From Parcubacteria group bacterium GW2011_GWD2_42_14 (GTDB lineage: Bacteria; Patescibacteriota; Minisyncoccia; Phycocordibacterales; UBA12088): DNA of 64,000 nucleotides. Positions 12,991 to 39,267 of this stretch are shown one piece after another. Numbering within the stretch: the stretch's first letter is position 1; the number at the start of each line of letters is the position of its first letter. The stretch spans positions 5,220 to 69,219 of the forward strand of contig LCCS01000007.1 in NCBI GenBank assembly GCA_000998045.1. Direction: 5' to 3'. The position numbers were made by a program, and so were the translations under genes. A model generated the notes under the pieces. It searched no databases. It was not told where the DNA came from and saw only the letters and a program-made list of their open reading frames with translations.

Positions 12991-14469
12991 CTACTTGAGG
13001 AGCTTGCGAACATCCTCCACCTCCTTATCAATAAGTTCTTCAGAAATATCCAATGCGTCTTTAAGTCCTTCGAGAATTGTTCTCTCCGTATCAGTCATGT
13101 TGGGTTTGTGCGATAGCTCAAGCACCTTCTCCTCAATTTCATCTCTAAGGACTCCAAAAATATTAATAAGTCTGTCTCCAACCTCAGCTGTTTCTCTTTT
13201 AATATGATCTTTTTCTTCATGAAAACGACGTCGCTCTTGAATTAACATCGTAATAACGATTGCAAGCGCACCCATAAAGAGAAGTGATACCCAATATATA
13301 GCCCCGAAGCCACTCTCCTTAATAGCATTTGGGTCCACCTCTTCAACCTTGGTTCCCGTTACAGTAACGGGGGCCTCGGCTGAGCGTTCATTGCCAGCGA
13401 AGTCGACAGCTGTAACACCTATCGTATGGTCTCCCGGATCCAAGTTGGTAATCGTATACCCGCCTGAGACTAGCTCGTTGGGCTGAACATCGCGTGGACT
13501 TTCTCCGTCTATCACAACACGATACAGTTCTACACCCGAAAGCGAGTCTTGTGCTTCAAATCGTATTTGTGCCGTTAAGTCTCCACCTACTGCAGTTACC
13601 CCAAACTCATCTGGTGGTGTGGTGTCAATTTGCAGTTTGTACGAAGTTGAACTTCCCCACCCTCCTCGATTTAAGTATTCCGCAGTGAAGTACCACGTAC
13701 CGTCCGTTATCCCCGTTTTACTCCATTCACCTACGGGCGGTTCATGTTTCTCAGTCGACGTCGCATCAGGAACATCTCCAAACGCAAACCGAACTCCAAG
13801 AACCCCATAGGGAATATCCCACGTGAATTTCGCATCTGATTTGTTATACCACACACCCTGTTCTGGATGCGTAGGACTTGAGATATCAGGAGCATCCGGT
13901 GGTGGGATTTTGGTATTTCTTTCTTGTGTAGGGGTGGTGGGCGGAGTAACTGGATCAGGTGGCTTGGCTGAAGCAGGGGTGACAGTAAATGTCGCTCCCG
14001 CAGAACCCGAAAGTACGTCCTGCCCTGCACCCGCAAGTAGGGTGGATTTTGTAAATTCAACTTTAGCAGAACCTTCTGCTTTTGCCTTAAAGGTAATGGT
14101 TGCGACTGCTTTTGAGCCAGAAATAGCCGTTGTACCACCTCCAGAAAACGTAATAGTCCCACCACTTATTTTTGGTTCAACTACCCAAAGATTAAAAGGT
14201 GAACCCTCTTTTGATACTGATACAGCGGTAAGCTTGCTCGTGTCGTAGGTAATAGTCGCTTCACCCGTGTTGACCGCATCAGTACCCGCATTGACCATGA
14301 CCTTTACAGCAAAAGTTTTACCAACCTCGAAACTGCCGTCTGCTGGTGAGAGTAGGTAGCTTGCAGCCAGAGAAACCTGTGGCACAGTGAGGCCGACAAG
14401 CGAACACATAAAAAACAGAAAGAAGAGTTTCTGTCTAAAATTTGGTAATGTGAAAAAAGCCTCGCTCAT
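12991..14469 (-). CDS. Cohesin-domain protein with Ig/Fn3-like domains, C-terminal TM helix and cytoplasmic coiled coil
   Basis: Signal peptide, then LSPADGSFEVGKTFAVKVMVNAG...EATITYD...SPFNLW (cohesin-like), a Pro/Thr linker and TM IYWVSLLFMGALAIVITMLI. Likely start MSEAFF at 14469 rather than 14529. Confidence 0.8.
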   Translation of the reverse strand: MSEAFFTLPNFRQKLFFLFFMCSLVGLTVPQVSLAASYLLSPADGSFEVGKTFAVKVMVNAGTDAVNTGEATITYDTSKLTAVSVSKEGSPFNLWVVEPKISGGTITFSGGGTTAISGSKAVATITFKAKAEGSAKVEFTKSTLLAGAGQDVLSGSAGATFTVTPASAKPPDPVTPPTTPTQERNTKIPPPDAPDISSPTHPEQGVWYNKSDAKFTWDIPYGVLGVRFAFGDVPDATSTEKHEPPVGEWSKTGITDGTWYFTAEYLNRGGWGSSTSYKLQIDTTPPDEFGVTAVGGDLTAQIRFEAQDSLSGVELYRVVIDGESPRDVQPNELVSGGYTITNLDPGDHTIGVTAVDFAGNERSAEAPVTVTGTKVEEVDPNAIKESGFGAIYWVSLLFMGALAIVITMLIQERRRFHEEKDHIKRETAEVGDRLINIFGVLRDEIEEKVLELSHKPNMTDTERTILEGLKDALDISEELIDKEVEDVRKLLK

Positions 14470-14494
14470 GCTCAATGTTTGCGAGCGAGGAATC

Positions 14495-14992
14495 TTATTG
14501 TAGACCCTGCGCTCCGTGATCGTCTGCACGTACTACATTCAAACGAAGTCCTTTCCCTTGCTTACCAATGAGTGGCAAACGTAGTGCCAATACGCCATCT
14601 TTTGTTTTTGCCTCTGCTCGTTCAGGATCTATCTCATCCGGAAGAATTATTTGTCTGTAAAAATCCCCCCAATGGCATTCCTCGAGAGTAAAATCACCAT
14701 TTTGTGAGGCGTGTGATTCGTGCATGAGCTGTTCTGGACGAAGGGCCGAACCTTGAATACTTACCACGTCGTTGTCTCCTGCAATAGAAACGTCCAAGGT
14801 CTGCATATCCATACCTGCAAGTTGTGCATAGATGACTATTTCTGTATCAGATTGAAACACATCGACAGGAAGCTGAAGTGCGTGACCAGGAAGTACTGGC
14901 TGTGAACTTTTAGCTGACGCTGAGGCATCTACAAGCTGGCCTTCTTTGTCAACAAGACCTTTCCCTTTTAGTTTATCCATAAAAGTACCCAT
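14495..14992 (-). CDS. Hsp20/alpha-crystallin small heat-shock protein
   Basis: LPVDVFQSDTEIVIYAQLAG...ECHWGDFYRQIILP...AEAKTKDGVLALRLP. Confidence 0.9.
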   Translation of the reverse strand: MGTFMDKLKGKGLVDKEGQLVDASASAKSSQPVLPGHALQLPVDVFQSDTEIVIYAQLAGMDMQTLDVSIAGDNDVVSIQGSALRPEQLMHESHASQNGDFTLEECHWGDFYRQIILPDEIDPERAEAKTKDGVLALRLPLIGKQGKGLRLNVVRADDHGAQGLQ

Positions 14993-15344: not shown

Positions 15345-15345
15345 G

Positions 15346-17214
15346 TTAGCCTGTCCAGTAGAATAGAAGTATAGAAAAGTCCGGTAGCGAGACCGTTCCG
15401 TCTTTGTTTACATCCGCTTCAACACTTGCAGTGTTCCAGTTAAAAAGAAGTATAGAAAAGTCGATTAAGTTTACCGAATCGTCACAGTTTAAATCTCCTC
15501 GACTCAGACAATCATCATCAGCAACCGTAACACCTAACCCTATTGTTTTTCTGGCACTTTTATCGCTCTCCACAAGGCCGTTTGGCATTTTCCCTTGTGC
15601 GACAAACTCATAGGTCCCCTTAGGAAGTTTCAGAGTAGGTATAGTGATAGTCCATGCTCCACTTCCATCTGCGGTAGTTGTACTCACAATATCTGCTGTA
15701 GAAACCTCAGCAAGCTTTGGACGTAGCCATGTCGTAAGCACTGCTTGTGGTGCAGAGTATCCCGTTACAACGAGGGGTGTCCCAGGCGATATGGAAGCTT
15801 CAGCCACAGACACCGTTGGAGGCAACATAATGTTATTGAGAGAGTTAAGGGTGTTTGTTTGTAGCCATAGTGTGGTTGAGAAGGTAGCACTGCGTACACC
15901 TTTGCTGTCTACTGCATAAATGCCAAACGAGTACGATCCTCGATCAAGACCTTCTGTTTTGTCACTAAATTCTCCACCTCCTCCTGCTCCCTTCGTAGTT
16001 ATGGTGACACCGTCCCTGAGGAACGAAACGGTAGCCCCAGGGTACGCCCATCCTTCTATACTTACATCAGCTTGAGGAAGCTTGGTACCTGTACCATCGT
16101 CTCCACCCCCGCTCGAACTACCTCCACCACCATCTCCGCCAGCAGGGCTTGTACCACTCCCTGACCCCGTAGAACCGCCTCCTGTACCGACATCGTCTCC
16201 TGTCCCTGATCCACCCTGCACCGTTGTCGAAGAAACTCCCGTGCCCGTGCCCGTGCCCGTCGTCGTGGCTGTCGACGTCGCACTTCCTGGCATGAGACCT
16301 ATAGTAAACGAGAGTTCGTAATCCGGATCCATTTCGTTTTCTCGGAAGTCCACACATCGGAGAAAGTAGTCGTACGTCGTGTCGTCTTCAAGATTGCTCA
16401 CTTGTGCAAAATGCCACTTAACAAGTCCTGAGGAAGTGCCTGTGAAGGAATATGGCATCAGGTCATACGCCATACTTGAGGTTGCAAAACGACAGTAAGC
16501 AGCTTCATCGGTAGTTACAAACATTTCTACTGCTCGGGTACCAACCTGTAACAGTCCGGTAGGCACCGCCGACAAAATAACTGGGGGTATTTGGTCAGTC
16601 GTATCGACTGGTCCGGCTGTCACCTGATCAACTATAGCTATCATAGTGCGCCCATAGTCCAGCTCGACATCACTGGTATTGTATGTGTACACTGTCACGG
16701 GGTATGAGCTAGTCGCAGCACTTAACTGTGCTTGCACATCTCCAGTAGCACCATACTGAGCATTCGTGCCTATTTCTACCACTACTTCGTTATTAGCAGG
16801 TATGCCAAGGGAGGTATTTAGATCAAAACGTATCTTCCCTGCACTTCCACTCGTGACCGTCACATCATCAGTACCAGCTGTTTGTATGGAGGATAGTGGT
16901 CTCTCGGTGTACGGTCCCCCTGGAACTGCGGAGAAAGCTATATCGACGTCGGAAAAGTTCAGCGTTGCCGGCAATATAATTCCACCCTCATCAAAAACTA
17001 TTTCTATGGCGCCATTGGCAGGAACTGCTTGCGTCAGAGTAAATGTAATCTTTTGATTCGTGTACGCACTTGGGGCGCTGGTCGAGAGCAAGTCGCTAAT
17101 GCGCGTGAGGTAGCTCGTCGCATACACCCTAGAAACAAAAGTAAGTAGTACACATACAACAACCAATCCAAAAATACTTTTGTGAAATTGTGGTGTGATT
17201 TTAAAATGTTCCAT
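15346..17214 (-). CDS. Secreted dockerin protein with pilin-like N-domain, Gly/Thr/Ser linker and Ig domains
   Basis: C-terminal duplicated Ca-binding repeat GDLNCDDSVNLIDFSILLFNW / ADVNKDGTVSLPDFSILLFYW; signal peptide; N-domain similar to 20371-20973. Confidence 0.85.
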   Translation of the reverse strand: MEHFKITPQFHKSIFGLVVVCVLLTFVSRVYATSYLTRISDLLSTSAPSAYTNQKITFTLTQAVPANGAIEIVFDEGGIILPATLNFSDVDIAFSAVPGGPYTERPLSSIQTAGTDDVTVTSGSAGKIRFDLNTSLGIPANNEVVVEIGTNAQYGATGDVQAQLSAATSSYPVTVYTYNTSDVELDYGRTMIAIVDQVTAGPVDTTDQIPPVILSAVPTGLLQVGTRAVEMFVTTDEAAYCRFATSSMAYDLMPYSFTGTSSGLVKWHFAQVSNLEDDTTYDYFLRCVDFRENEMDPDYELSFTIGLMPGSATSTATTTGTGTGTGVSSTTVQGGSGTGDDVGTGGGSTGSGSGTSPAGGDGGGGSSSGGGDDGTGTKLPQADVSIEGWAYPGATVSFLRDGVTITTKGAGGGGEFSDKTEGLDRGSYSFGIYAVDSKGVRSATFSTTLWLQTNTLNSLNNIMLPPTVSVAEASISPGTPLVVTGYSAPQAVLTTWLRPKLAEVSTADIVSTTTADGSGAWTITIPTLKLPKGTYEFVAQGKMPNGLVESDKSARKTIGLGVTVADDDCLSRGDLNCDDSVNLIDFSILLFNWNTASVEADVNKDGTVSLPDFSILLFYWTG

Positions 17215-17222: not shown

Positions 17223-18055
17223 TTATTTGCTCTCAACTGACACAACACATCTGAATCCCAATGCATCACCATTAAAGGTTTCGGGACTTGCCGCATAGGT
17301 AGCATATAACCCTGCATCATCATAGTTATTGAAATAGCCTCCACGCATAATTCCCGCCTCAATGTTTGAGTCTGTCCAAAATCTATCATTAAAATAATTT
17401 GCACTTTTTTCTGTCCCAGTCGTATATGCCAGACAAACCCTGATTCGGGAAGAATGGAGTTTTGATACATACCGAGAGCAACCGTACCTTCTACCCACTC
17501 CCACACGTTTCCTATCATATCGTATGCACCCGCAGATGAAATGCATCGCGTTCCACTGCCTGTTTCAGAAACTCCCTCTGCCCTGTTGTGTGCAACATTG
17601 CAATCTTCTTCGTTCCAGCCACTCGCCTCATCGGGTGTGCCAAACGCTGCAACAAACCATTCGTTAGGTGTCGGTAGTCGTTTACCCGCTTGTGCGCACG
17701 CGCGCTCTGCAAGCTCTCGCGTTACATGTCTCCATGGTATACGCTCTTTTCTAGCAACAGGTATACACGTAGTGTTTGAAAGGTTAAACATTGATTCATC
17801 GATATTTTTGGGATCTTGATAGAAGCACGCCTCATGTGCAGACACCTCGTACACATCAATACAGAAAGGATTAAGTGTTTTTGAGATGTACACCATATTG
17901 TCAGGACATGAACCCTGAAATGGTCGCGTAGAAAACAGCAAACCACCAAGTAACGTGTGGTACTGGTCGCGAAAGTCAAAAGCATTCACAGCAAGTGTGG
18001 CGAGAAGCGTTGAACCCACAACGACCGCTATGGTCTTTGCCAGATTTCTAAGCAT
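17223..18055 (-). pseudogene. FGE-sulfatase (SUMF1/C-type-lectin fold) protein, frameshifted near 17430
   Basis: CPDNMV, FCIDVYE, CAQAGKRLPT, YDMIGNVWEWV lie in one frame. RGGYFNN...LGFRCV lies in another frame ending at 17223. Confidence 0.75.
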
Positions 18056-18135: not shown

Positions 18136-18250
18136 AAAGTTGAAAGTTAAATGTTTAAAGTTAAAAGTTAAATGCACCTCGCCTTCGGCGAACACAATCC
18201 CGCACATGCGGGATTGTGAACTTTCAACTTTAAACTTTCAACATTTAACT
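18136..18250. repeat. Heptad-arm inverted element with GC hairpin core
   Basis: (AAAGTTR)n arm, CACAATCCCGCACATGCGGGATTGTG, then (AACTTTY)n arm; same layout at 58434-58533. Confidence 0.7.
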
Positions 18251-18610
18251 CACTAGTGATTTTCGTCTCTTTGAATCAAGATAAAAGTTCATTAAGATAA
18301 GTCCCAAGAGACCACTACCCATGAGCGTGATAAGAAGTAGCACTTTTCTATCGCCTGAACCTTGTGATGTGGTAAGAGCAAGCTCACGAGCATCAAGCAT
18401 CTTCTCTCTTTCATCTAACTGTGCTACAAGAGTATTCACACCATTCTCCTCTACGCCAGCATACACACCGACAGTGTTTGCGGTCAAATCAGAATCTTGT
18501 TGAAGTGCAATACTCCAACTCTGCCCGAGAAGTAGTGCAAAGGCTGAAAACAATACAAGAGTCGTATTAAGGAGAAGTTTGATTTCTCTCTTTGAGTATA
18601 ACCAAAACAT
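18245..18610 (-). CDS. Small two-TM protein with central coiled coil
   Basis: Hydrophobic N- and C-segments; NTLVAQLDEREKMLDARE; GGAGG 1 nt before the ATG; in operon. Confidence 0.75.
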   Translation of the reverse strand: MFWLYSKREIKLLLNTTLVLFSAFALLLGQSWSIALQQDSDLTANTVGVYAGVEENGVNTLVAQLDEREKMLDARELALTTSQGSGDRKVLLLITLMGSGLLGLILMNFYLDSKRRKSLVS

Positions 18611-18628: not shown

Positions 18629-19708
18629 TTAGGCAAAAAAGGCAACCATTCCTATAAACAGTAAAGCGAGTATGACAAGTATCCACGTTGTAGTTCGTAC
18701 CAATCTTTTTGCAAAGGATACATTCTGTGACTTGTGCGTACTTTGTGGTGTTTGCCCTGCTTTCTTGAGCATACTTCGTACATACCTACGTACACCCACG
18801 ATAAAGGTGAGGAGTACTATTGCAAGTGCACCGAATGCTATTCCAATTTCCTTCAATGGTAATACCCAGAAACTTACCTCTTTTGTGATAGTTCTTTTTT
18901 GTGTATCACCGAAGAGCACACTTGCTTCCGCCGTATATCTTCCGAGTGCAAAGCCGTCAAATTCCCATGTGGTATCAAACACTCGGTCGAATCGAGGAAG
19001 TATAGCCCCCCCTGTCTCATTAAACTTCACCTGCCCTACTTCATTACCAAACATATCAAAGATATTGATAATACCAAGGGGTCGTTGATGTATCGTACCA
19101 GTGTTCTCTATTTTGGTTTTAAATATTACCGACGGCGTCGTAACGATAGCCTTTTCGGTAAAAAATTCACGGAAGAGCATGTCGTCGTTTATCTCACCTC
19201 GCACTCTCAGGTTCACGAGTGACGCTACGTGGAAGCCCACTCCAGCTCCTGTCTCGGTAACCTTGTCAGCTTCTCGCGTTACGAAGAAAGCGGCAAAGTA
19301 ACTCCCCGGAGATGCATCTGTAGGTACTTCTATGCGATACGGCACTGCGACAGATTCACCTACCTCCATGGTAACAGATTCAAGAGAGGGCTTCAGCCAT
19401 GCAGCTGCTTCCAAAGGATCATTGTTATTCACTTCATCTGCAAACGAGGGCGTACCTGTCTCACTCATCCCTGTAATGTTTCGCGTACCGATATAGTATG
19501 TTTGTTTTCCCCCCTCTTCGTTTGAGACGGTAAGCACACCCTCAAGCACCTGCCCTGCATCCACCACTTCGTCTATCTGGCTCGGCTGGACCTTAACTGC
19601 AAGACCGCCCTGCGCATGTGCACATGTACTCTGGAGAGTTAGGAGCCCTATTAAAAACATACCACTACCCAGCAATTTTATACTTTTAAGTGTACTGTGT
19701 TTTACCAT
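18629..19708 (-). CDS. DUF916/DUF3324-like (WxL-interacting-like) membrane-anchored Ig protein, paralog 1
   Basis: Signal peptide; YRIEVPTDASPGSYFA; ENTGTIHQRPLG; GRYTA; FWVLP followed by TM helices. Confidence 0.75.
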   Translation of the reverse strand: MVKHSTLKSIKLLGSGMFLIGLLTLQSTCAHAQGGLAVKVQPSQIDEVVDAGQVLEGVLTVSNEEGGKQTYYIGTRNITGMSETGTPSFADEVNNNDPLEAAAWLKPSLESVTMEVGESVAVPYRIEVPTDASPGSYFAAFFVTREADKVTETGAGVGFHVASLVNLRVRGEINDDMLFREFFTEKAIVTTPSVIFKTKIENTGTIHQRPLGIINIFDMFGNEVGQVKFNETGGAILPRFDRVFDTTWEFDGFALGRYTAEASVLFGDTQKRTITKEVSFWVLPLKEIGIAFGALAIVLLTFIVGVRRYVRSMLKKAGQTPQSTHKSQNVSFAKRLVRTTTWILVILALLFIGMVAFFA

Positions 19709-19732: not shown

Positions 19733-19771
19733 CTATAAACCTCCGTACAAAAAATGTGCGGAGGTTTATAG
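19733..19771. terminator. Strong hairpin after the pilin-like subunit gene
   Basis: CTATAAACCTCCGTACA...TGTGCGGAGGTTTATAG. Confidence 0.65.
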
Positions 19772-19804: not shown

Positions 19805-20973
19805 CTAGAATACTGGCGTAGCAATGTAGGTAAGTGTAGCAGTGTAATCTTTTGCAGCTTCCTGTAGATTGCTAATCTCAACTTTGTAAGCTACGGTCGT
19901 TGTACCAACTCCCATACCACCAGACTGTAATGCAGGTAGAGGGTGATAAAACACTTCTACAGGATTGTTTATGAAGTTACCAACATACGCCGCCTGTGCA
20001 TTTCCCCACAGACTCGGTACGGTACTTGAACTCACTACGTTGTCGTCAGAGGTAAGTCCCCAGTGACCATAGGTATCAATCGAACCAAGCACTGGTGTAG
20101 GACCATCCCATAAGGTACTTGAGGCAATACCTCCTGCATCTGGTCCGTTAACAAACGGATTAATCGTCGCGCCGTTTCCTGATGTAAGCGTTTGGTCTGC
20201 AAACACGGTAACGCTGAAGCCGTTAAGTGCGTTTGTGTCAACTCGAAGTTGCTGTGCCATAAGTTTCGCTGTATCAGGAGCAATGATACCGAAAGGAACT
20301 GTAGTTGCTGTAGAAGAAGCAAAGGTGGTAGTGACGTCATCGTTGACACTAACACCTCCTGCAACTCCCTTTATAGAGATACCGAAGCGGTAACAGTAAC
20401 ATCATCAATAACTGCAATACGAGTATCTCCTGAATCAGTCATCGTTCCTCCAAGACGTATCACGTATGAATCGGCTGTTGCAGGGTTCGCAATGAAGTTT
20501 GTAACTCCCGCAACAATTTGTACAACGGTGCCGGCAGTAATGCTGTCAGTTGGACATACGGTAAGTTCAATAAAATCAGCAGTGTCATCTACATCACTCG
20601 CGTACATCTCACTCGCGGCTCCAGTACAGTTTCCAACAGCAGCGACTTCGGTGATAGTACCGCCTGAAACAGCTGAAATATTGATATCACCAAGAGCAAG
20701 ACCTGTCAGGTCAAACTCTTGACCATCTGGATCAAAAGTAACACGTAGTGTTTCCGATGCAGCTATGGCATTTACTAACTCAAACTGTAATGTGTGCGTG
20801 GCATCTAAACCTATATCTGAATCTGATAATGTGTCGCTAAACTCAACAACGTTGTCTGCGTTTGCGTTATGAATCATGGCAGGCAAGCCTAAACTCCATG
20901 CAAGCAATGCGACAATAGTCGCTAGAGCGATAGTTCTATAGTGCATTGGAAATGCGAATGCTATATTTTTCAT
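19805..20973 (-). pseudogene. Two-domain WxL/pilin-like secreted subunit (~390 aa), frameshifted at ~20375
   Basis: Frame 1: signal peptide ...DTRIAVIDDVTVTASV then TAA. Frame 2 resumes SIKGVAGGVSVNDDVTTTFASSTATTVPFGIIAP...DYTATLTYIATPVF. Confidence 0.8.
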
Positions 20974-24271: not shown

Positions 24272-24336
24272 AGTGGGCAAATTTGAAATTTGAAATGAAT
24301 CCCGTTAAAGATCCTGCCATTTATGTAAGTTCTGAA

Positions 24337-24551
24337 GGACTTACGTAAACGGATGCAGTTCGAGGCGCGCAAACAAAATACTACGAGCCGTACAGGCAGG
24401 TACGGTGAGGAGTATTTTGTGTAGCGCAACAAAGAAATGCGACCAATTTTTCTTATGAGCCTTGCAATTAGAAAAATGAAGTACTCTTGCCTGCCCCGTA
24501 CCCATTGCGAAGCTTTGTGGTACTGGGGTGGTGCGCCATTTATGTAATTTC
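24337..24551. mobile_element. Family P element with two levels of nested inserts
   Basis: Family core plus the same ACCA...TGGT insert as the 12812 copy, itself interrupted at 24490-24528 by a CCTG-hairpin. Confidence 0.8.
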
Positions 24552-24556
24552 TGAAA

Positions 24557-24676
24557 GGACTTACATAAATGGATGCAGTTCGAGGCGCCCAAACAAAATG
24601 GAACGAGTTGTATGAACAATACTACGAGAGACATTTTGTGTAGGACAACGATGAAATGCGCCGTTTCCGTAAGTCC
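24557..24676. mobile_element. 120-bp palindromic element (family P), tandem copy abutting a TAG stop
   Basis: GGACTTACATAAATGG...CCGTTTCCGTAAGTCC; last base overlaps the TAG at 24676-24678. Confidence 0.85.
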
Positions 24677-25230: not shown

Positions 25231-25272
25231 TCCAGGTAACCGTACACTTTACACAACTAACTCCAAAAATAT

Positions 25273-25326
25273 CGTCTTTGCGAGTCGCAACGAAGCAAAC
25301 CAGGTCTTGTTTACAGGTGCGACTCG
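25273..25326. repeat. CGTC-tagged REP-like palindrome (partial)
   Basis: CGTCTTTGCGAGTCGCAACGAAGCAAACCA matches 21279 at 29/30 positions. Confidence 0.7.
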
Positions 25327-25365
25327 GTTAGTTAGAGATGGTATAGAAACAACAGGTCAACTCTT

Positions 25366-28700: not shown

Positions 28701-29062
28701 TCTATAAGTTCTTCTGGAAGAGGTTCTTCATTCACTTCTTCTACTTCAGCAGTAACATTTTCTTTCTCCTCTACCGACTCACCTCCTCCAGTATTTCCTT
28801 GAAATATCTGTTCTTCTATAGGCAATCGCTCAGGCTCCATCATAACCTCATCGGAAGTAGGTTCTTCTGTCGCATCAAGTCCGCGCTCTAAATCCTTCCC
28901 TACGAAAAAATCTTTAACCCAGCTTTGTTTCTCCACCGTTGTTGGCTTTGGTTTCCTTACTTGCGCCCTTGATCCTGCCCGCACCGCATCAATAGACTTC
29001 GGAACAACTTCTGATAAAGGTTTAGGTGGTTGTATACCATCGAAGCTTTTTGGTCCTTCCAT
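25720..29062 (-). pseudogene. Large (~1,110 aa) coiled-coil/Gly-Ala hydrophobic-hairpin protein split by a frameshift at ~28515
   Basis: The acidic 182-aa ORF ends QESEE*. The overlapping ORF becomes protein-like only from RDEAWKEIRENY. One promoter at 29071. Confidence 0.6.
27392..27535 (-). repeat. Coding tandem repeat, 51 bp x ~3 (EDVHFGGVDIKVPEGSQ)
   Basis: Near-identical direct repeats, flanked by PESGD(V/I)AT duplicates. Confidence 0.9.
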
Positions 29063-29265: not shown

Positions 29266-32200
29266 TTAGAACACTGGCAATACAATATATACAATCTTAC
29301 TCTCATATATACCTGCAGGCTGACCTTCACCTGCGCCTATTCTATATATAATGTCTGTTGTTTCATCATGTACAGGCCCCGAGCTATAGGCTATTTCTTC
29401 AAGTGTCTCCGTAAGTGGCGCAAACGTGTCATTAAGTAAGAATCTTGTTGAACCTCCTGTAAGGGTATTATCACCAGCATGATACCCATAGCAACTTTGT
29501 GCTGTTACCAAACATCCCGTCGTCCACGGTACCGGCGAGCTGTTTGAACCTGCAATATCCTCAATTCCTACCCCTCCACTACTCATAAGGTTTTGGCGTT
29601 CATACGCCACCACCTGATACCCTTCGGTCGCGTTTGTGGTAACAGTTAACCGTTGCACTGCTTCCTTCGGTACACCAAGCTCAAGTACCCCAAACGGTAT
29701 CGAAGTTGCCGAAGTTTCCACATCAGCAACATATCCTTCGGTTGAAAATCCAGCGGTGACACCTTGAATTGAGAAACTTAACGTTGCACCCTCGGTTGAA
29801 AGCGAAGGATAACTTGTGAGTGTTGTGGAAGCAGTAACCGGGGTATCACGTTCTACATCATATAGTCTAAAGAAGTACGTCATATTATTTCGTGCGTTGT
29901 TGTGCTGTAGGGTAAATTCAAACTCCTTTTTTGTGACGTTGGTGAATACGAAGCCTGAGTCGCCTGCACGATACAATACACCTCCTGTAGCATGTGCAAG
30001 ATATGCAATTACTTCAGAGGTGTGGGTGAGCTCTCCATCGTCACGCTCATCAATAGCAAACTGAGCCGAATCTGCATCAACATTGCCATAACGTACCCAT
30101 CCCCCTTCGGCACCATTGCGCGTCTGCTTATGTGCAATAATCCCGGGAATACCGATAAACAACTGTGTAAACGCTTGTTCGTACCATGGAATATCTGCCC
30201 ATCCAGTAATGGACTCCGTTGTGGTCGTCGCCTCAAATGCAATGCCGTTGTTGGTAAATACACCTCCTTCAATGGCGATCCAGCCTATGGTCTCTGTATT
30301 TGTGGGTTCCGCCGTTTCACCGTCAGGTACCTCTATTGAACAAGCAAAAGTATTCGCATTTGGCAAGGCGATAGAAGTAGTCAAGAAATCAGGTGAATTT
30401 GTGTTGTTGTTGGTCTGCAATGAGGTGAGTATGACCGGCGTACTCGAAAATGTCTGTGTAAACGTACACGTATCATCTGAGGCGCCACTCACCGCATTAC
30501 CATAGTAGTGATTAGTATCAAGTGTATTTACATCTACTTTTCTTCCATCAGGAAGGGTATACGACCCACGCTCCATAACTATGTATGACAACAATTCCTC
30601 CCCGTGAGTGTCGGGCTCATTGTCCGGCTCTTGTATACGGACCGTAAAACTTGAGGTGGTGGTACCCGTGATAATCGCCACTGCCGGTCTATTCAGTGCA
30701 CCACCTCCCGTATCTCCAGAAATCGCTTCAACAATAAAGACAGGATCGATGTAGGTATGTGCAAGAGTTACTGTTGTTCCTACACTGTCCGCAGTCGTCG
30801 TTCCTACTTCACCAACGACTTCCGGAGTATATGAGTACTCATTGTATGTTCCACATCCGTCCCCTACTCCTCCTACGCAACTATCGGAAGTGGCGAGTAC
30901 TGCTTCGTCAATAAACTCTCCTTCCGCACCTGCTCCATCCGCATAGCACCACGGGGAGCTTGTAGTACAACTATCTCTATCGGTCACATCAGTCACCACA
31001 CTAAAGTCAGAAAATTCTGACCACTGAAGTTTAAATTTCGTATTACCTCCATCACGACCTGCAATCTCTTCCACCAGCACCCGTAGCTTGAGAACTTCCG
31101 CTTGTGGAATATTGGACGGCGCAGTATTAGTGGCTGCTAGTGATGAAACGGGCGTGACTGCGGTCTCATCGTCATACCATCGCCAGTCTTTTTGTTCTGT
31201 ATCAAATCCTGCTATGGTGATAGTGGGGTAGTAGAGGTACTCATCAAGTTCACTACCATCTGACTCAACCATACGGAAACAGTAGCTCGAAAAATCTACC
31301 ACCCCATTTGCCTCAAGTATCCAATCATACTCAACATCATCCCCGAAATATATTTTGTAAGGATTGAGTGCTGTTGGGTTCGCTTCTTCATATGTTCCAG
31401 CACGACTTGAAACAGAAAGATTTAAATCACCTACTGTTGGAGGATTTGTTGAGAGAGTCGAACCACTGAGCGGAGTAGCATTATATCCACGCCACAGTAC
31501 GGTTGTTGAAGCAGAATCTCCCGTGTCTAGCCATGTACTTATTGCGGAACATGCCGTATCACGAGTACCGTACTGTAGCTTGTACTGTTTTGTTCCTTGA
31601 GAGATGTTTGCACCAGAAACAGAAAGCGACATGCGTACGCGCACCCTATCTCCATCGGAAGGTGCCATATCAAGTCCTGTAATCGTGGTGTTTTCACCCA
31701 AATCAGCCACACCTAACGGCCATGGATCGGTTGGGTCAAGAGTGTCATTGTCAACGTAAAATCGGAAATAGTTTTGACTCACCTTCAGTACCGCTGTCGG
31801 CCAATCCACGACTTCTGTGCGGTATGCACGGCCAGTACCAGTGTCTGATATCCAGAGTTGGTAGAACGTGGTAGAGGTGATACCCGCCCCCATAATTGCT
31901 CGAGGATGCACCGTGTCAGTACCAAGTCCCCACATGTTCATAAAAATGGAACCATTTGAGAGTGATGAAAGTGTTCTACCTATCGCAATCGAATACGTTG
32001 ATGGCTCAACACCTCCAGCGTTTTGTGTCGCATTTGACCGTGCAACTACCATCGGGCTACCAGTAATTTGTGTGTTTTCAATAACCCACGCTACCGAAGT
32101 ATGAGAACTAGCAGTCCTCACGGTCCCTGGAACACTATATGCAACTTGCCCAACACTGGAGAGCCAAACCTGATGCCCGTACTCATCAACACGGTTATCT

Positions 32201-35200
32201 ATCACTCGTTTTTGCGTATGCAAAAAAGCACGTGACAAATCATTAACTGGTGTAATATTTTCAACCTCGGTCGCTCCCGGGGTGTTATACGTATGTTCAC
32301 TGCGCTGAGTCTTCCAGTTATCTCCAGTAAACTCTACAATTGCATAACTTACCACCGAAGCAACTGAGCCAGTTATACCTCGGGTAAAGGTTGCATCATC
32401 TGATCCACTATTCCATACAGCAGTTGAAAGACCTGCAGGATAGCCAGTCGAGTTAGCCGAAGGGTTCTGCTGACCTGTGATAAACACAACAACATCATTG
32501 TCGTTCGCCACATCTTCTATAGTCGGCGTTGTCACCGTCGTGTTCGCTGAACCATATATTGCATTTTCTTGCGCTCGTACAATCATTTCATTATCTCCTC
32601 CTGCAGGTCCTGTATACTCGATAATTTCCCAGTAAATACGAGTCGAATTTGTTATACCGGTACGTTGGAACGTGACACTGTTTGTAATGTTACTTGGATT
32701 TTGGATACTTGTGGTTACATTACTTGCATTTTGGGTTCCACCTCCCGACGTCGCTCCTGCGCCGGTATGCGAAGCATTTGTGATACGTATAAATGCACTC
32801 GTACTCGCTTTCGGTGCAACATACTCGACACCTGCAGTGATAGTGACCGAGGAAGTGGTGTTTGCAATGTCGCTCACCCCACGTTGAATGTAAAAGTCCT
32901 GATTGGTACTCACCACAGCTTCTGCATATGTCTCGTAGGCCAGTGCCCCCTCCTCGTCTCTCACTCTAAAACAGTATGTCGTACCTGCTGTCGCGTCTAT
33001 GTTTGGCTCAATAACGTACTCAAGTTCCATAAACTCATCCGGTTCGAGTGTAAGGATATCGCTCACTGCAGTGTTTTCAATAACACCGCTGTTTGGTGTC
33101 AAGAAAATCGCGTTTTCGTCAGACACCCCACCAAGTGCAGCTGCAATGTTAGTAGTATCACTGCCTGCAGTCACCTCTTCAGACTCCGAAGGACTCCAGA
33201 CAGCGCCCGTTGAACCCACAGTCGCCCACTCTGAGATTGCACTACACGTCGTCACTCGTTCTGCGTATTCAAGAGTAAACACAGAAGGGTCAGAGCTCGT
33301 TGCACCTTTGTTACTTACTGCAAATCGAAGTCTTTCGACGACACCTGATAACGCTCCCGTAATCGGGACATCCTCAACTCCACCAGTTTTTGATGTTGCG
33401 AGCGACTCACTGCCATCGTCATTCCTAAAATGGTAGTGCTCCAAAACCAATAGCGATTTTTCAATAGTCGTTGAACCAGTGGGACCAACAGGATAGCTTG
33501 GGTTTATCGTACCAGTGGACACCGAGACATCAGTACTTGGATTCGCAATTGATATTTGAATGGTTTCGAGGTTCCCTGCATCAGAATCAACGTCCATTAC
33601 GGCATACACACATATAGCAAACGAATCTGTAATACCCACAGTTTCAGTGAAGGTTATAGTACCATTAGCACTTGAGAAACCATTCACAGCAGTCGATCCA
33701 TACTGTTCTTCATTTCCATCATAACTTTCACTTGCGCACGTATACGGACTTGATGAATCAAGCTCGTACAGCAATTTTATGTTTTTGAGATTGTTTTGTG
33801 CATCTACGGTTCCTGTTTCGCTAAGTATGATGGAGTTCACATCACGAGGGCCAGAGAAATCTTGCAACACCAACGTACCTCCGAGGTAGTTGTTTGTTGA
33901 ACTTGCTTGTACCGCTTCAACATGTGCGCCTTGAGCTGAGACAAACACATCAGACATCATGGCCACTTCAGGAAAAGTATTGTAAACCGGAAGTGCAGTG
34001 CCACTGTCTGTAACACGAAAACAGTAGCTACCTCCATCGACAGCGCCAGCAAGTGCCACAACAGAATACTCAAGTTCTACAAACTCATCCGGTTCGAGAA
34101 TAAGCGCACCTGTCTCGCTCGTTGTGTCACGCACACCACCGTTTGGAGTGAGAAATACTGCATTTTCATCAGTCACTCCACCCGTAGCTTCTCCTATGTT
34201 GGTCGTCGAATTTCCTTCAGTAAGGTTTAACGAGTTATACATATCCCACGCACCATCCACGGAGGCTACGTTCGTCCACCCTTCTGTCGTTGCGGAACAA
34301 GTCCCATTGAGTAGAGCATACTCAAGACGAAACGTGGTAGCAGTCGACGCCGAAATACCTTCGTTTGACACCTGCACACGTATACGTTGCGGTGACGCTT
34401 CAGGGAAGTTAGTCAACACCGTATCTTCATTGCCCTCTGTCGCACTTCCCGCTCCCGACTCACTCCCGTTGTCTAAACGCCAATGATAGTGTGTCTGTGT
34501 GAGAAGTGGTGCGGTGAGTGTTGTTGTATCTGGAATTTCAAGTGGTTCAGATTGGATAAGCAACAAATCTCCTCCACCAAGCACCACATCATTACCCGAG
34601 GTAATTTGAAGCTCAATCGTTTCTCCAGAAAGAGCGTTTGTGGTGACATCCATGATGGGATAGAGACACACTGCTTGTGTACTTGAAGCGGAGACTGCTC
34701 CTGCAAACGATGCGGTGCCGTTTGCACCACTGAAACCATCCGCATCGGTCACCCCATACTGCAGTTCACTGCCTCCGTAGCTTTCACTTGCACAGTCATA
34801 GGGTGCGGTTGTATCAAACTCATAGAGTAGTGTAATGTTATCAAGACTATTTTGTGCATCTACAGTTCCTGTTTCAGTGATGGTAACATCAGTTACCGTA
34901 TGGGTTTCTACACTACCATTATCTACTATAACAAAAGCCCCACCAACATGTTGGCTCACGCTCGGAATCGTCATTTCCGCAACCTGTGCTCCTGTTGTTG
35001 TCGCAAACGCATGTATCCTATAGGTAGCCTCTGGGTACCGAGGGTACTCGGACAGTGGTGCGCCTTGGTCGGAAACACGGAAACAATACTGCGTTGTGTC
35101 GATAGCAAATGAGGTTGGACTAATGGCATACTCTAGTTCAAGAAAATCTGCTCCATTAACAGTCAGCATCCCTGTCTCATCTCCCGTATCAAGTACGGCT

Positions 35201-38200
35201 CCATTGGGGGTAAGAAAATGTGTGTTCTCATCAGGTACACCACCCTCCGCACTCGCAATGTTCGTCGTATTTTCCCCATGGGTAAGGTTCAATGAGTCGT
35301 ACATATCCCACGCACCACCGGCTTCACCGACTCGCGTCCACGTCGACACATCACCACAACTCGTTACTTTTTCACCGTACTCAAGACGAAAAGCTTTCGC
35401 GTTGGTGTTGACCTCTCCTTCGTTTGAAACTTCCAGACGGAGTCGGTACGGTCTTCCCATTTTCGTACTCGACAACGGGGTATCCTCTACTCCACCTGTT
35501 GCCGAAGTCGCCTCGGCTTCATTCCCATTGTTTTCCCGCCAGTGGTAGTGAACCTGGTGCAAGATACTTTTCTGCCACGCTACATATCGGTAGTTGTTGA
35601 TGCCGTTTGCGTTCGTCTCAGCAGCACTTCCCAGAGAAAAACCATTAAAAGTTGTTCCTGTAATTGCGCCGGCAACAGAGCCACTATTGATAAAGGGAAG
35701 TGCTCCATCTCCAACTATGTCAGAAAATCGCCATACACCTTGTGTTGCAGTCGTGCGTTTTATCCAAAGATGAAATGGTTGAAAACCAACAGTGATGTCT
35801 TGACTGGTGCCGTTACCGCTGTATGTTCCAAGTGCAAACGTACTTGATGTTGCAAATCCAAAATACCAATACATGTTTGCAGTAGCATTTACGTTTGAGG
35901 CGTTACCAACCTGAAAACCATCTGTGTTTAAAGTCTGAATTAAATTCACTCCATCAAGTGTCGCGGTAAAGTAACTTGAAAGATCTCCCGTGTGTTCTGT
36001 TGAACGCCACACACCGCCACTCACCCCATTATTCTTTATGGTGAGCATGTCTGGACTGAAAGGTAAATGTGTAATACTGCGATTATCAATTCCATTGCCG
36101 TAGTACGCACCAATAACAAAATCCGCTGCGCCAGAGTTGGTATCCGGATTCCATGCATTTCCAAACGCCGTCCAGTAGTACGTGACCCCGGGGGTATTAA
36201 CCGTTGCGTCGGTACCAATAGAGAAACTTTCCGATTGTAAGGAGGTAATACCTTCTGCGAAGTTTGCGTTTGGTGAATCAAGGTACGCGGTTGAATTTCC
36301 ACCCATAATCCTTGTTGAAAATACTCCTGCTTGTGTAGTGTTTCCTTTAATTATTACCAGATCTGGTTCAAAGCCAAGATCAGAAAATACGAGCGTGTTC
36401 CCTGTACCAACATATGAACCCGAATTCATCTGGTACGTGCCGTTTGCAACGTGAGGAGTAGCTCCACCAAAGGCAGCGTAGTAGTGCGTATTCCCGTTTC
36501 CGTTTGCTGTGTTGCTCGTTCCTACTTGGAAGCCGTCAGATTCCAGAGCCTGTACTGCATTTATCAAGTTCGCCGTATCGGCAAAATAGCTTGAACTGTC
36601 TCCATAGGATTCATTGAGCGAGTGGACTGCACCCACTGCAACATTTGCGTTTTTAGTAAATAACCAATCAGGGCGGAAACCGACACTTCCGATGCTTCTG
36701 TTATCGCTCGTATTTCCGGCATACGTACCTACATCCACTTCTCCTACCGATTCTTTAAACGTGGCAAAGTAATATATACCTGCATTCACGTTGTGCGTCG
36801 TCCCAACTGTAAAACCATTTGCATCTAGGGTCGTAAAGAATGTCCCTGTGGTATCTTCTACTGTTGCGGAAAAATACTGGGCATAGTTGACTGGCATCAC
36901 ACTTGAGCGCCACGTGGGGAGAACAGCGGTAGAGCGCTTCACCCACACCAAATCTGGCTGAAATCCAGAAGGGATGGCCTTCGTCGCACCACCGTCTCCT
37001 GTGTAGCGCCCTACACAAAAGGTCCCTCCCGAAGAACACTCAGATCCACTAAATGCAACCCATGTAAAACGATTGTTTAAATCATTAATTCCTGTTCCTG
37101 CTACACGAAATCCATCATTGGTTAACACGATGAGTCCTGCCGCATTGTCAGCGGTCGCACTCCCGAGGTAGGCAGTGTTGTTTTGGGGCATGGCCACGGT
37201 TTTCCAAACAGCACCCGTTCCGGCTGTGGTGTTCGCTTTAACAATTACCATGTCAGGAGTAAAGCCAAGTCCGCTTATCTCCTTCACTCCTCCATCTCCA
37301 ACGTAATATCCTGTTTGCGTTTTGTATGTTGCGGTACCACGGCTTGTAGTATCAGCCCACACTACATATCGGTAGTTATTAACCCCAAGTGTGTTTGCTT
37401 CCACCCCCGTCCCCACTGAAAAACCGTTCGCATAAAAACCAGTGAGGGCGTCCTGCACCAACGCAGTGTTTAAAAAAGGAAACGACGTCGCTCCTGTGGT
37501 ACTCGCCGTACGCAGAACCCCTTGTACTGCACCAGTTTGCTTCACCCATGCATGGTCTGGCGCGAAGCTTGTATCGACATTGTGTGCCACGCCGGTACCG
37601 CTGTAGGTACCTACTGCAAAGTTTGTCCCTGTTGCAAACCCGAAGTACCAATATAAGCTGGCTGCAGTATTCACGTTCGCAAGAGTACCTATTTGAAAAC
37701 CATCAACGGTTAAACTTTGAATTTGATTTGCACCATCGGCTAATGCATGAAAATAACTTGATACGTCACCAACATGCTCGCTTGAACGCCACACAGCTTG
37801 CGTAGCACCACTTGTCTTTACTGTTAGAAAATCAGGACTGAACGGTAAACGAGTAATACTTCTGTTGTCTAACCCATTTCCATAGTAGGCACCAATAACA
37901 AAATCTTGCGACCCAGTATTTGTCTTGGGGTTCCAGGCATTGCCGTACGCAGTCCACACATACTCGACACCATTTGTGTTGACGGTTGCATGACTACCAA
38001 TCGTAAAGCCGTTAGGTGAGAGCGTTGTGATACCTCCCGCAAAGTTCGCGGTTGCAACACCGAGGTATGCTGTGGAATCACCCCCCATCATACTTGTTGA
38101 GAACACCGCTTGTTCCGTAGAGCTTGCTTTCACAATGACTAAGTCTGGTGCAAAACCAAGATTCGATATAACTCGTGCATTACCATCTCCAACATAGGTA

Positions 38201-39267
38201 CCCGAAACTGCTGTAAACGTCCCTTGAGCACTATGGTCAACAGCACCACCAAAGGCAGCGTAGTAGTGCGTATTCCCGTTTCCGTTTGCGGTATTACTAG
38301 TCCCTACTTGAAACCCGTCAGATTCCAGAGCCTGTACTGCATTTATTAAGTTCGCCGTATCGGCAAAGTAGCTTGAGCTGTCACCGTAGGATTCGTTGAG
38401 CGAGTACACAGCACCCACCGTAGCATTGGCGTTCTTGGTAAACAGCCAGTCGGGACGAAAGCCAACATCAGGAATGCTTCTGTTGTCACTTGTATTTCCA
38501 GTATAGGTACCAACATCGATAACACCCGCCACTTCTTTAAATGCCATGTAGGAGTAAATACCCCCAACAGCATTGTTCGTCGCACCTACACTAAACCCTG
38601 TTGCGTCAAGTGTCGTAAAATATGCACCGGTGCTGTTTTCGAGAGTCGCTGAGAAAAATTGAGCGTAATTGTCTGGCATACTACTTGAGCGCCAGTTTGC
38701 CAAAACAGCTGTTGATTGCTTCACGATGACCAAGTCGGGGTCAAACCCTGTCGGTACCGCCTGAGTCGCGTTACCGTCACCTGTATATCTCCCCACACAT
38801 AGTTGTCCACCAGCACTACAATCAGAACCAGAAAACGCCACCCATGTGTAACGGTTGTTAACCGTATCGGAAAGTGTACCTGTTACGATAAAACCGTTTG
38901 GAGTAAATTGTATTTGAGCCGTGGTATTGTCTGCTGTTGCAACACCCAAGTACGCCACATTATTTTTTGGCATACCAATAGTTTTCATAATAGCGCCCGT
39001 ACCCCCTGCGGTGTCAGCTTTCAGTATTACCACCTCGGGGGTAAACCCAAGCCCGGAAATCTCATTTGAAGATCCGCTTCCCACATAATAACCCGTCTGC
39101 ATCTGGTAGGTAGCAGCTACTACGCGAGTGATGCCGAGGAACCGTGCTATTGGATTATGGAAAACAATTATAAGCACAAGCAGAAGTACCCCCAAGAGAA
39201 GCACAAAACGCCTCACAAAGAGGTGTTGCCATATACGGGATAGTTTGTGAACAATAAACTCCTTCAT
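29266..39267 (-). CDS. Giant 3,333-aa modular adhesin with C-terminal WxL/pilin-like domain
   Basis: N-terminal hydrophobic segment; 12 GxYxGxG...GFxPD repeats; five YHWR...YCFR-type modules; ends YESKIVYIVLPVF. Confidence 0.9.
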   Translation of the reverse strand: MKEFIVHKLSRIWQHLFVRRFVLLLGVLLLVLIIVFHNPIARFLGITRVVAATYQMQTGYYVGSGSSNEISGLGFTPEVVILKADTAGGTGAIMKTIGMPKNNVAYLGVATADNTTAQIQFTPNGFIVTGTLSDTVNNRYTWVAFSGSDCSAGGQLCVGRYTGDGNATQAVPTGFDPDLVIVKQSTAVLANWRSSSMPDNYAQFFSATLENSTGAYFTTLDATGFSVGATNNAVGGIYSYMAFKEVAGVIDVGTYTGNTSDNRSIPDVGFRPDWLFTKNANATVGAVYSLNESYGDSSSYFADTANLINAVQALESDGFQVGTSNTANGNGNTHYYAAFGGAVDHSAQGTFTAVSGTYVGDGNARVISNLGFAPDLVIVKASSTEQAVFSTSMMGGDSTAYLGVATANFAGGITTLSPNGFTIGSHATVNTNGVEYVWTAYGNAWNPKTNTGSQDFVIGAYYGNGLDNRSITRLPFSPDFLTVKTSGATQAVWRSSEHVGDVSSYFHALADGANQIQSLTVDGFQIGTLANVNTAASLYWYFGFATGTNFAVGTYSGTGVAHNVDTSFAPDHAWVKQTGAVQGVLRTASTTGATSFPFLNTALVQDALTGFYANGFSVGTGVEANTLGVNNYRYVVWADTTSRGTATYKTQTGYYVGDGGVKEISGLGFTPDMVIVKANTTAGTGAVWKTVAMPQNNTAYLGSATADNAAGLIVLTNDGFRVAGTGINDLNNRFTWVAFSGSECSSGGTFCVGRYTGDGGATKAIPSGFQPDLVWVKRSTAVLPTWRSSVMPVNYAQYFSATVEDTTGTFFTTLDANGFTVGTTHNVNAGIYYFATFKESVGEVDVGTYAGNTSDNRSIGSVGFRPDWLFTKNANVAVGAVHSLNESYGDSSSYFADTANLINAVQALESDGFQVGTSNTANGNGNTHYYAAFGGATPHVANGTYQMNSGSYVGTGNTLVFSDLGFEPDLVIIKGNTTQAGVFSTRIMGGNSTAYLDSPNANFAEGITSLQSESFSIGTDATVNTPGVTYYWTAFGNAWNPDTNSGAADFVIGAYYGNGIDNRSITHLPFSPDMLTIKNNGVSGGVWRSTEHTGDLSSYFTATLDGVNLIQTLNTDGFQVGNASNVNATANMYWYFGFATSSTFALGTYSGNGTSQDITVGFQPFHLWIKRTTATQGVWRFSDIVGDGALPFINSGSVAGAITGTTFNGFSLGSAAETNANGINNYRYVAWQKSILHQVHYHWRENNGNEAEATSATGGVEDTPLSSTKMGRPYRLRLEVSNEGEVNTNAKAFRLEYGEKVTSCGDVSTWTRVGEAGGAWDMYDSLNLTHGENTTNIASAEGGVPDENTHFLTPNGAVLDTGDETGMLTVNGADFLELEYAISPTSFAIDTTQYCFRVSDQGAPLSEYPRYPEATYRIHAFATTTGAQVAEMTIPSVSQHVGGAFVIVDNGSVETHTVTDVTITETGTVDAQNSLDNITLLYEFDTTAPYDCASESYGGSELQYGVTDADGFSGANGTASFAGAVSASSTQAVCLYPIMDVTTNALSGETIELQITSGNDVVLGGGDLLLIQSEPLEIPDTTTLTAPLLTQTHYHWRLDNGSESGAGSATEGNEDTVLTNFPEASPQRIRVQVSNEGISASTATTFRLEYALLNGTCSATTEGWTNVASVDGAWDMYNSLNLTEGNSTTNIGEATGGVTDENAVFLTPNGGVRDTTSETGALILEPDEFVELEYSVVALAGAVDGGSYCFRVTDSGTALPVYNTFPEVAMMSDVFVSAQGAHVEAVQASSTNNYLGGTLVLQDFSGPRDVNSIILSETGTVDAQNNLKNIKLLYELDSSSPYTCASESYDGNEEQYGSTAVNGFSSANGTITFTETVGITDSFAICVYAVMDVDSDAGNLETIQISIANPSTDVSVSTGTINPSYPVGPTGSTTIEKSLLVLEHYHFRNDDGSESLATSKTGGVEDVPITGALSGVVERLRFAVSNKGATSSDPSVFTLEYAERVTTCSAISEWATVGSTGAVWSPSESEEVTAGSDTTNIAAALGGVSDENAIFLTPNSGVIENTAVSDILTLEPDEFMELEYVIEPNIDATAGTTYCFRVRDEEGALAYETYAEAVVSTNQDFYIQRGVSDIANTTSSVTITAGVEYVAPKASTSAFIRITNASHTGAGATSGGGTQNASNVTTSIQNPSNITNSVTFQRTGITNSTRIYWEIIEYTGPAGGDNEMIVRAQENAIYGSANTTVTTPTIEDVANDNDVVVFITGQQNPSANSTGYPAGLSTAVWNSGSDDATFTRGITGSVASVVSYAIVEFTGDNWKTQRSEHTYNTPGATEVENITPVNDLSRAFLHTQKRVIDNRVDEYGHQVWLSSVGQVAYSVPGTVRTASSHTSVAWVIENTQITGSPMVVARSNATQNAGGVEPSTYSIAIGRTLSSLSNGSIFMNMWGLGTDTVHPRAIMGAGITSTTFYQLWISDTGTGRAYRTEVVDWPTAVLKVSQNYFRFYVDNDTLDPTDPWPLGVADLGENTTITGLDMAPSDGDRVRVRMSLSVSGANISQGTKQYKLQYGTRDTACSAISTWLDTGDSASTTVLWRGYNATPLSGSTLSTNPPTVGDLNLSVSSRAGTYEEANPTALNPYKIYFGDDVEYDWILEANGVVDFSSYCFRMVESDGSELDEYLYYPTITIAGFDTEQKDWRWYDDETAVTPVSSLAATNTAPSNIPQAEVLKLRVLVEEIAGRDGGNTKFKLQWSEFSDFSVVTDVTDRDSCTTSSPWCYADGAGAEGEFIDEAVLATSDSCVGGVGDGCGTYNEYSYTPEVVGEVGTTTADSVGTTVTLAHTYIDPVFIVEAISGDTGGGALNRPAVAIITGTTTSSFTVRIQEPDNEPDTHGEELLSYIVMERGSYTLPDGRKVDVNTLDTNHYYGNAVSGASDDTCTFTQTFSSTPVILTSLQTNNNTNSPDFLTTSIALPNANTFACSIEVPDGETAEPTNTETIGWIAIEGGVFTNNGIAFEATTTTESITGWADIPWYEQAFTQLFIGIPGIIAHKQTRNGAEGGWVRYGNVDADSAQFAIDERDDGELTHTSEVIAYLAHATGGVLYRAGDSGFVFTNVTKKEFEFTLQHNNARNNMTYFFRLYDVERDTPVTASTTLTSYPSLSTEGATLSFSIQGVTAGFSTEGYVADVETSATSIPFGVLELGVPKEAVQRLTVTTNATEGYQVVAYERQNLMSSGGVGIEDIAGSNSSPVPWTTGCLVTAQSCYGYHAGDNTLTGGSTRFLLNDTFAPLTETLEEIAYSSGPVHDETTDIIYRIGAGEGQPAGIYESKIVYIVLPVF

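Follow-up and report, generated by a model that had tools for sequence, protein, structure and literature searches.

The question raised by this locus is which kind of surface structure is built from a secreted subunit, a giant secreted protein, three membrane-anchored proteins, a dockerin and a cohesin that are encoded side by side. The locus lies in a stretch of 64,000 nucleotides (the window) on contig C7 of Parcubacteria group bacterium GW2011_GWD2_42_14, whose genome assembly is of 1.08 Mb and 94% complete. The named relatives of its pilin and chaperones belong to the Parcubacteria group, Pacebacteria or Patescibacteria. The analysis reported here indicates that a thin surface fibre of the Pam kind is the most likely product of this locus, whose bearer is an ultrasmall bacterium of groundwater.

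The minus strand carries every gene considered here, and those named by the first-pass annotation are present where it placed them. Read in the direction of transcription, a 576-aa protein and a giant of 3,333 aa precede three genes that vary or are unrelated, after which come chaperone C, chaperone B and the pilin. The pilin gene is followed by chaperone A, a 121-aa protein, a protein similar to formylglycine-generating enzyme (FGE), the dockerin protein, HSP20, the cohesin protein and a second giant. The features considered are as follows.

29266..39267, minus strand: secreted giant of 3,333 aa, candidate tip adhesin, with repeats and a C-terminal pilin acceptor domain
22902..24218, minus strand: chaperone C, with two beta domains and a C-terminal membrane helix, WxLIP/PamC-D-like
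21419..22972, minus strand: chaperone B, the listed 5' end of which enters a dispersed repeat
19805..20973, minus strand: major pilin, 394 aa with the assembly gap counted, made up of signal peptide, N-sandwich, linker strand and C-terminal acceptor domain
20379..20380, no strand: 16-base assembly gap dividing the pilin gene in the window
19733..19771, minus strand: hairpin 3' of the pilin gene that may terminate transcription or stabilise the mRNA
18629..19708, minus strand: chaperone A, the most conserved of the three paralogues
18245..18610, minus strand: 121-aa protein with two hydrophobic helices, its position kept in relatives, with no family
17223..18055, minus strand: FGE-sulfatase-like secreted protein, found only in some relatives, with a 22-base assembly gap at 17431
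15346..17214, minus strand: candidate base subunit with C-terminal dockerin
14495..14992, minus strand: HSP20, its position kept within the family
12991..14529, minus strand: candidate anchor with cohesin, Ig/Fn3-like stalk, membrane helix and cytoplasmic tail

The ORFs at 24676-29062, between the giant and chaperone C, are variable among relatives and were excluded from the system. Two proteins without a family match keep their place across the family, namely the 576-aa acidic protein (39277-41007) and the 121-aa two-helix protein. The second giant (2-12511 of the window, minus strand) belongs to an ORF that extends beyond the end of the contig and has a length of at least 5,910 aa; relatives have it behind the cohesin gene, and one of its repeats also occurs in the first giant.

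In the window the pilin is read as two ORFs of 200 and about 190 aa. The first-pass annotation had described a single subunit of ~390 aa without mention of this frameshift, and the single gene, though not its intactness in the window, is what stands. Contigs from three of four sequencing runs (X1, X3 and X4) carry 16 extra bases behind 20379; X3 and X4 represent one sample, and all three runs, from two samples, are possibly the source of the window DNA. The contigs of the fourth run break at this site. With the restored bases the 1169 become 395 codons, and in relatives one ORF of about 390 aa encodes the pilin; the split hence stems from an error of assembly, as does the gap of 22 bases that interrupts the FGE-like gene at 17431. 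The two frameshifts could otherwise be taken as signs of a broken pilin gene in a decaying locus. This explanation has next to no likelihood, as both gaps are filled, with the pilin in frame, in contigs of three of the four runs; at the level of contigs the pseudogene reading is refuted, since no contig spans the pilin site in the short form. Compared with the public contigs, the small deletions at 17431 and 20379 lie less than 3 kb apart, which suggests further assembly errors in the genome.

A dispersed intergenic repeat of ~130 bp is found at 12811-12949, 22772-22916, 24336-24476 and 24551-24678, with copies on many other contigs. It accounts for a shadow ORF and for a false 5' extension of chaperone B, the true start of which is probably near 22790. 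The pilin gene had been credited with its own promoter and a strong terminator. The former did not hold up in the promoter scan, where promoter-like sites occur at chance level (28 against 29.1 expected). For the latter, a strong hairpin does follow the gene (-30.2 kcal/mol for 93 nt, z -6.05), but it is not listed by the terminator scan, which is itself at chance level.

The two domains of the pilin were said to be shared each with a different neighbour, and both relationships are significant in profile comparisons. The C-domain and the last ~170 aa of the giant are 27% identical over 191 columns in BLASTP (E 2e-10), and the profile-profile alignment gives P 99.7% (E 4.5e-27). The N-domain matches that of the dockerin protein weakly in the pairwise comparison (E 2e-4) and with P 99.2% (E 2e-19) between profiles, over 160 columns that include the strand after the domain.

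The pilin has no match in Pfam or PHROGs, and a sequence search of the PDB gave 0 matches to E 5. A relationship emerged with the pilins of the Pam pilus. The pilin family aligns by hhalign with 54 PamB-like sequences, collected with a PamB-like query alone (54 of 121, a tally that includes the unpublished G369), with P 99.0% and E 6e-18 over 300 columns covering both domains and the linker. The N-domain and C-domain taken separately reach 93.8% and 96.7%; four unrelated domains used as controls (cohesin, two-Ig base, Fn3 stalk and chaperone) remain at or below 2.5% with this profile. Searched over all ORFs of the genome, the PamB-like profile matches the two pilin halves and the C-terminus of the giant and nothing else. 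A PamA-like alignment of just 3 sequences gave P 2.4%, which is not significant, with an HMM match of the N-domain at E 2e-4. These comparisons use proxy operons, L151-L153 of Candidatus Saccharibacteria, rather than the PamA and PamB sequences of M. amalyticus themselves. In the proxies seven genes are arranged as the accession numbers of the Pam paper imply; one pilin is of 58-64 kDa and has 4 cysteines, another is of 37-38 kDa and has 6, and genes for ATP synthase lie nearby. L151 additionally has MFS and CBS-domain genes. By gene content and order the three loci appear to be Pam operons. The fibre can hence no longer be called undescribed, as it had been, given this homology to operons of Pam layout. 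The designation of the subunit as WxL/pilin-like is retained in its second half and dropped in its first, since the Pfam WxL domain (PF13731) is found in 0 of 112 members of the pilin family. Homology of the C-domain to WxL proteins is only a lead, with weak Atlas scores of 0.86-0.91 to clusters that are 22-44% WxL.

The structure predicted for the intact pilin orthologue of a relative, G001, has two beta-sandwiches (pLDDT 95.5, pTM 0.72), and the linker between them (residues 150-162) pairs with nothing. Its alternating residues V153, V155, A157 and V159 (V-x-V-x-A-x-V) are 98-100% conserved among 119 sequences. This strand may resemble the donor strands of class-5 fimbriae. The N-domain resembles many Ig-like folds (Z 8-10). 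The best fold match of the C-part is TLP-1 (Z 8.6, rmsd 3.0, 147 residues aligned), which is taken as supporting evidence only because the Z score is modest and barely above the 'common' range of the tool. TLP-1 is described as an environmental fibril built by donor-strand exchange (PMC11494351). With the whole pilin model, all that Foldseek yielded were generic adhesins of two Ig domains, at an rmsd near 28, and no Pam, WxL or class-5 pilin chain is among the fold-search matches listed. The first-pass annotation had made the N-domain the donor; the conserved strand between the domains, unpaired in the model, takes that place, in agreement with the account of the Pam pilus (PMC13278184).

Two further groups of proteins were observed in the searches. 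Giant ORFs of up to 3,829 aa in family f49 (G060:C9:359172-360140, G088:C61:3015-3983 and others) match the whole of the pilin, and since the match covers N-domain, linker and C-domain these giants could sit inside the shaft and not at the tip. The loci L131 (6504-14737), L132 and L133 have the same chaperone together with short secreted proteins and large proteins that share another conserved C-terminus, missed by the pilin profiles and probably a further pilin subtype.

The three proteins that flank the pilin gene are paralogous, as had been noted, with 26-29% identity (E 1e-25 to 1e-31) and a C-terminal hydrophobic helix in each. Their description as DUF916-like needs qualification. The three proteins of the window are without a Pfam match, whereas PF06030 (DUF916) is found at E<=0.1 in 42 of 83 members of the chaperone family, and the family profile matches EfmWxLIP1 in the PDB (E 1e-4). 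The curated cut-off of PF06030 (27.3 bits) is passed by two homologues and by two PamC-like proteins (34.9 and 31.1 bits), and the profile matches PamC/D-like proteins at E 1e-40 and 1e-29. DUF3324 (PF11797) is absent among the 25 families listed of the 48 found for the 83 members. By sequence the three membrane proteins are thus placed as relatives of both the PamC/D-like and the WxLIP/DUF916 chaperones, and the passing of the PF06030 cut-off by PamC-like proteins, with the shared profile matches, makes the Pam and Elr chaperones appear to be one family.

This relationship bears on a short static surface complex as a different explanation, in which, as in the platform model of WxL/Csc proteins, each membrane 'chaperone' would permanently hold one C-domain protein and no long polymer would form. 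Such a complex, to which the WxLIP homology, the presence of three membrane paralogues for few clients and the lack of any filament for the lineage in the literature searched would be agreeable, is improbable. An unpaired and highly conserved linker strand is sensible only as a donor, orphan extra pilin genes are present away from chaperone genes, and the homologous Pam pilins and ElrD are reported to form filaments by cryo-EM (PMC13278184; bioRxiv 10.64898/2026.10.17.759780). Polymerisation of the pilin is accordingly the reading followed here, and it is very probable.

The giant has a signal peptide and about twelve repeats of ~100 aa over residues ~40-1240, which are similar to a phage tail-fibre protein (phrog_24898, E 1e-45). 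Repeats of ~350 aa extend over ~1230-2120. The giant also has a match to DUF7483. The acceptor domain occupies ~3163-3333 and matches the PamB-like profile with P 94.0%. No linker strand is found ahead of it, and the linker motif was likewise missing before the acceptor domain of the giants of 8 relatives (best scores -5.1 to 3.4). In distant loci the tip role is filled by a giant or by a PamT-like protein of ~250 aa. A location of the giant at the tip is likely.

The base and the anchor of the fibre were proposed to be joined by a dockerin and a cohesin. Both domains exceed their Pfam cut-offs, the cohesin (PF00963) with 42.5 bits against 24.1 and the dockerin (PF00404) with 26.3 bits against 22.9, and the cohesin gene was rightly placed two genes past the dockerin gene, HSP20 lying between them. 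The dockerin protein consists of a pilin-type N-domain (95.4% against the PamB-like profile), a degenerate strand, a Cys-pair domain, a Gly/Ser/Thr linker, two Ig-like domains (~380-565) and a C-terminal dockerin with two Ca-loop motifs; it is without an acceptor domain and without a membrane helix. The cohesin protein has its cohesin at 68-175 and a membrane helix at ~411. Similarity of the base candidate to PamR-like proteins is confined to one Ig domain (P 84.7%).

Base-type proteins, defined by two Ig-like domains, were collected from the fetched stretches. Of 56, six were dropped: one was truncated, and in the other five (1 ending in a dockerin, 4 in a helix) fewer than 4 kb of DNA followed the gene and no cohesin was visible there. 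The remaining 50 were kept. A cohesin gene lies within 4 kb downstream of 38 of the 40 dockerin-ended genes (23 families) and of 0 of the 10 genes that end in a membrane helix (6 families). For both exceptions, a protein homologous to the cohesin protein of the window is encoded at another place in the genome. The Fisher value of 6e-9 for this pattern overstates it, since kin are not independent, and the family counts are used instead. The two-Ig relatives of the dockerin protein are found downstream of a chaperone gene, have a linker-like start and end in a membrane helix or a dockerin. A linker-like strand directly after the signal peptide scores above 6 bits in 8 of 39 base-type proteins against 3 of 141 N-termini of chaperones and cohesins.

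The linkage with cohesin genes thus favours the cohesin-dockerin base as proposed; the weak part is the strand of the window's own base family, which is degenerate, with an invariant Gly-Pro inside and best windows of -0.7 to 4.6 with the pilin-linker matrix against a pilin median of 15.8. That degenerate strand could also belong to a surface-display scaffold of dockerin protein and cohesin separate from a Pam-type pilus, which would then be held by the last membrane chaperone or shed; Pam pili are indeed reported to detach easily (PMC13278184). Cohesins are widespread in the phylum (81 of 301 genomes with PF00963, many of them without a pilin match), and 14 of the 40 dockerin-ended genes are without a chaperone gene in the fetched stretch, in some cases where the contigs end. 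A cassette on contig C6, described below, which has a dockerin protein and no recognisable pilin, is in keeping with a separate scaffold as well. We regard this arrangement as rather unlikely, considering that the dockerin protein shares with the pilin an N-domain plus strand and that its two-Ig relatives combine a place behind a chaperone gene with a linker-like start and either of two kinds of membrane or dockerin ending. Capping of the fibre by the dockerin protein and anchoring by the cohesin are the preferred reading, and on balance a probable one.

The cassette on contig C6 (G000:C6:10289-19306) encodes a 629-aa secreted protein, a distant WxLIP-like chaperone, a protein of strand, two-Ig and dockerin, two cohesin-membrane proteins and a 240-aa adaptor of cohesin and dockerin. 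The 629-aa protein matches the pilin C-domain with P under 1%. The cassette is possibly a second, divergent fibre system. Two further dockerins and four further cohesin-like domains in the genome are possible alternative partners.

The description of the system as sortase-less is correct for the locus, where no protein has a C-terminal LPxTG, and needs amending for the genome, which has a single sortase-family gene (G000:C10:14766-15167, PF04203, E 5e-22), unlinked to the locus. A simple pattern found no convincing C-terminal LPxTG signals in the genome. No usher (PF00577) was matched in the 94%-complete genome, the control being positive in E. coli, and Pfam gives no carbohydrate-active enzyme in the locus.

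The gene neighbourhood is conserved in relatives, as the survey called for by the first-pass annotation reveals. A query with the pilin C-domain has matches in 15 of the 24 other genomes of the family and in 0 of 16 genomes of the order's other families. The 15 stretches of DNA fetched from relatives comprise 12 of operon type, two with orphan pilin genes and one with the giant alone. The order chaperone C, chaperone B, pilin, chaperone A is kept in 12/12 of the operon-type loci, the dockerin gene comes after these in 9/9 loci whose contig continues, and the cohesin gene is found in 7/8, the exception having a 67%-identical orthologue on another contig. A giant lies upstream in 8 of the 12. 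Among 301 genomes of the phylum (own included) the pilin profile is found in 68, the chaperone in 146, a count that includes the unpublished G194, and the base two-Ig region in 76.

The closest known system is the Pam pilus of Ca. Mycosynbacter amalyticus, reported to be assembled by donor-strand exchange and solved by cryo-EM (Troman et al. 2026, PMC13278184). Both share a two-domain pilin of N-sandwich, linker strand and truncated Ig C-domain, chaperones anchored in the membrane by their C-terminus, an acceptor-only tip and the lack of an usher, and the present system would share the donor-only base and the filament as well (PMC13278184). The present genome has one pilin gene where Pam has PamA/B/E, and the locus has three chaperones in place of two, a 3,333-aa tip against the single-domain PamT, and a base ending in a dockerin beside a cohesin anchor where PamR has a membrane helix; the ATP synthase, CorB and MFS neighbours of Pam are not seen (PMC13278184). 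Homology of pilin and chaperones to Pam, together with the missing PamR-type base, defines it as a variant of Pam. In the main text of the Pam paper the terms cohesin, dockerin, WxL, Parcubacteria and Paceibacteria do not occur (PMC13278184).

In the Elr/WxL pilus of Enterococcus faecalis (Sleutel et al. 2026, bioRxiv 10.64898/2026.10.17.759780) a DUF916-type protein is described as priming the WxL pilin for the exchange of donor strands, and filaments of the WxL protein ElrD are seen by cryo-EM (bioRxiv 10.64898/2026.10.17.759780). The present locus resembles it in a probably DUF916-related membrane chaperone, presumed donor-strand exchange, a large acceptor-only candidate tip with variable payload and a putative donor-only terminator, and differs from it in that the Elr donor strand is N-terminal, the Elr pilin has one domain and the anchor is LPxTG with sortase A (bioRxiv 10.64898/2026.10.17.759780). 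On the strength of a screen of RefSeq genera at Pfam cut-offs, Elr has been reported to be restricted to Bacillota, and the main text of the preprint mentions neither CPR nor cohesin or dockerin (bioRxiv 10.64898/2026.10.17.759780). Chaperone-usher pili and TLP-1 fibrils (PMC11494351) have in common with the proposed pilus the donor-strand completion of an Ig-like domain; here no usher is found, the chaperones are membrane-tethered and the presumed donor strand is internal. By Pfam definition the system is outside WxL/Elr, and it is outside chaperone-usher.

A cohesin-dockerin pair serves as the anchor of cellulosomes, where for example SdbA or OlpB holds CipA. In the locus, as in cellulosomes, the cohesin is anchored to the cell and Ig-like modules stand before the dockerin; here the cargo would be a pilus base, a membrane helix forms the anchor, and Pfam finds no carbohydrate-active enzyme in the locus. 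Cohesin-dockerin as the anchor of a pilus was not found in the literature searched, which mostly excludes subscription journals.

The proposed assembly builds on what is directly observed, namely the homologies, the architecture, the gene order, the unpaired linker of the monomer model and the difference between dockerin/cohesin and membrane-helix endings. The subunits would be secreted via their signal peptides, and the open groove of each C-domain would be filled by a membrane-tethered WxLIP/PamC-D-like chaperone, as deduced from Pam and Elr. The giant, with an acceptor domain only, would start the fibre and so be located at its tip. The dockerin protein, having N-domain and strand without a groove, would terminate the growth, and its dockerin would plug into the membrane-anchored cohesin, the job done elsewhere by the membrane helix of PamR or the sortase signal of ElrB. 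A polymer assembled head to tail without an usher, with an acceptor-only protein at its tip and with chaperones in the membrane, had been foreseen; the support for it is good, and it is in line with the experimentally solved structures of the Pam and Elr pili. We favour, with reasonable confidence, the complete scheme of a Pam-type pilus whose growth is ended by a dockerin protein that plugs into a membrane cohesin. Attachment of the fibre to a host is a somewhat better than even prospect.

More tentatively, and at a little below an even chance, Pam and WxL/Elr may be one family of usher-less donor-strand pili built by membrane chaperones. The chaperone, found in about half of the sampled Patescibacteria genomes (146/301), would not be restricted to Bacillota, and the base would be swappable between a membrane helix, a sortase signal and a dockerin, with the cohesin-dockerin plug in use in most of the sampled CPR lineages. 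Two discoveries of 2026, Pam and Elr, the main texts of which are silent on each other's lineages, are now linked, and the WxLIP chaperone family reaches far beyond Bacillota. Anchoring of pili is a suggested use of cohesin-dockerin pairs and, if true, would give them a major non-cellulosomal role. The anchor would then be calcium-dependent and possibly releasable, for fibres tipped with giant host-binding proteins that resemble tail fibres. A candidate shaft, tip and anchor can thus be named for the finding and holding of hosts by the Parcubacteria group, and the variable giant tip is a candidate determinant of host range.
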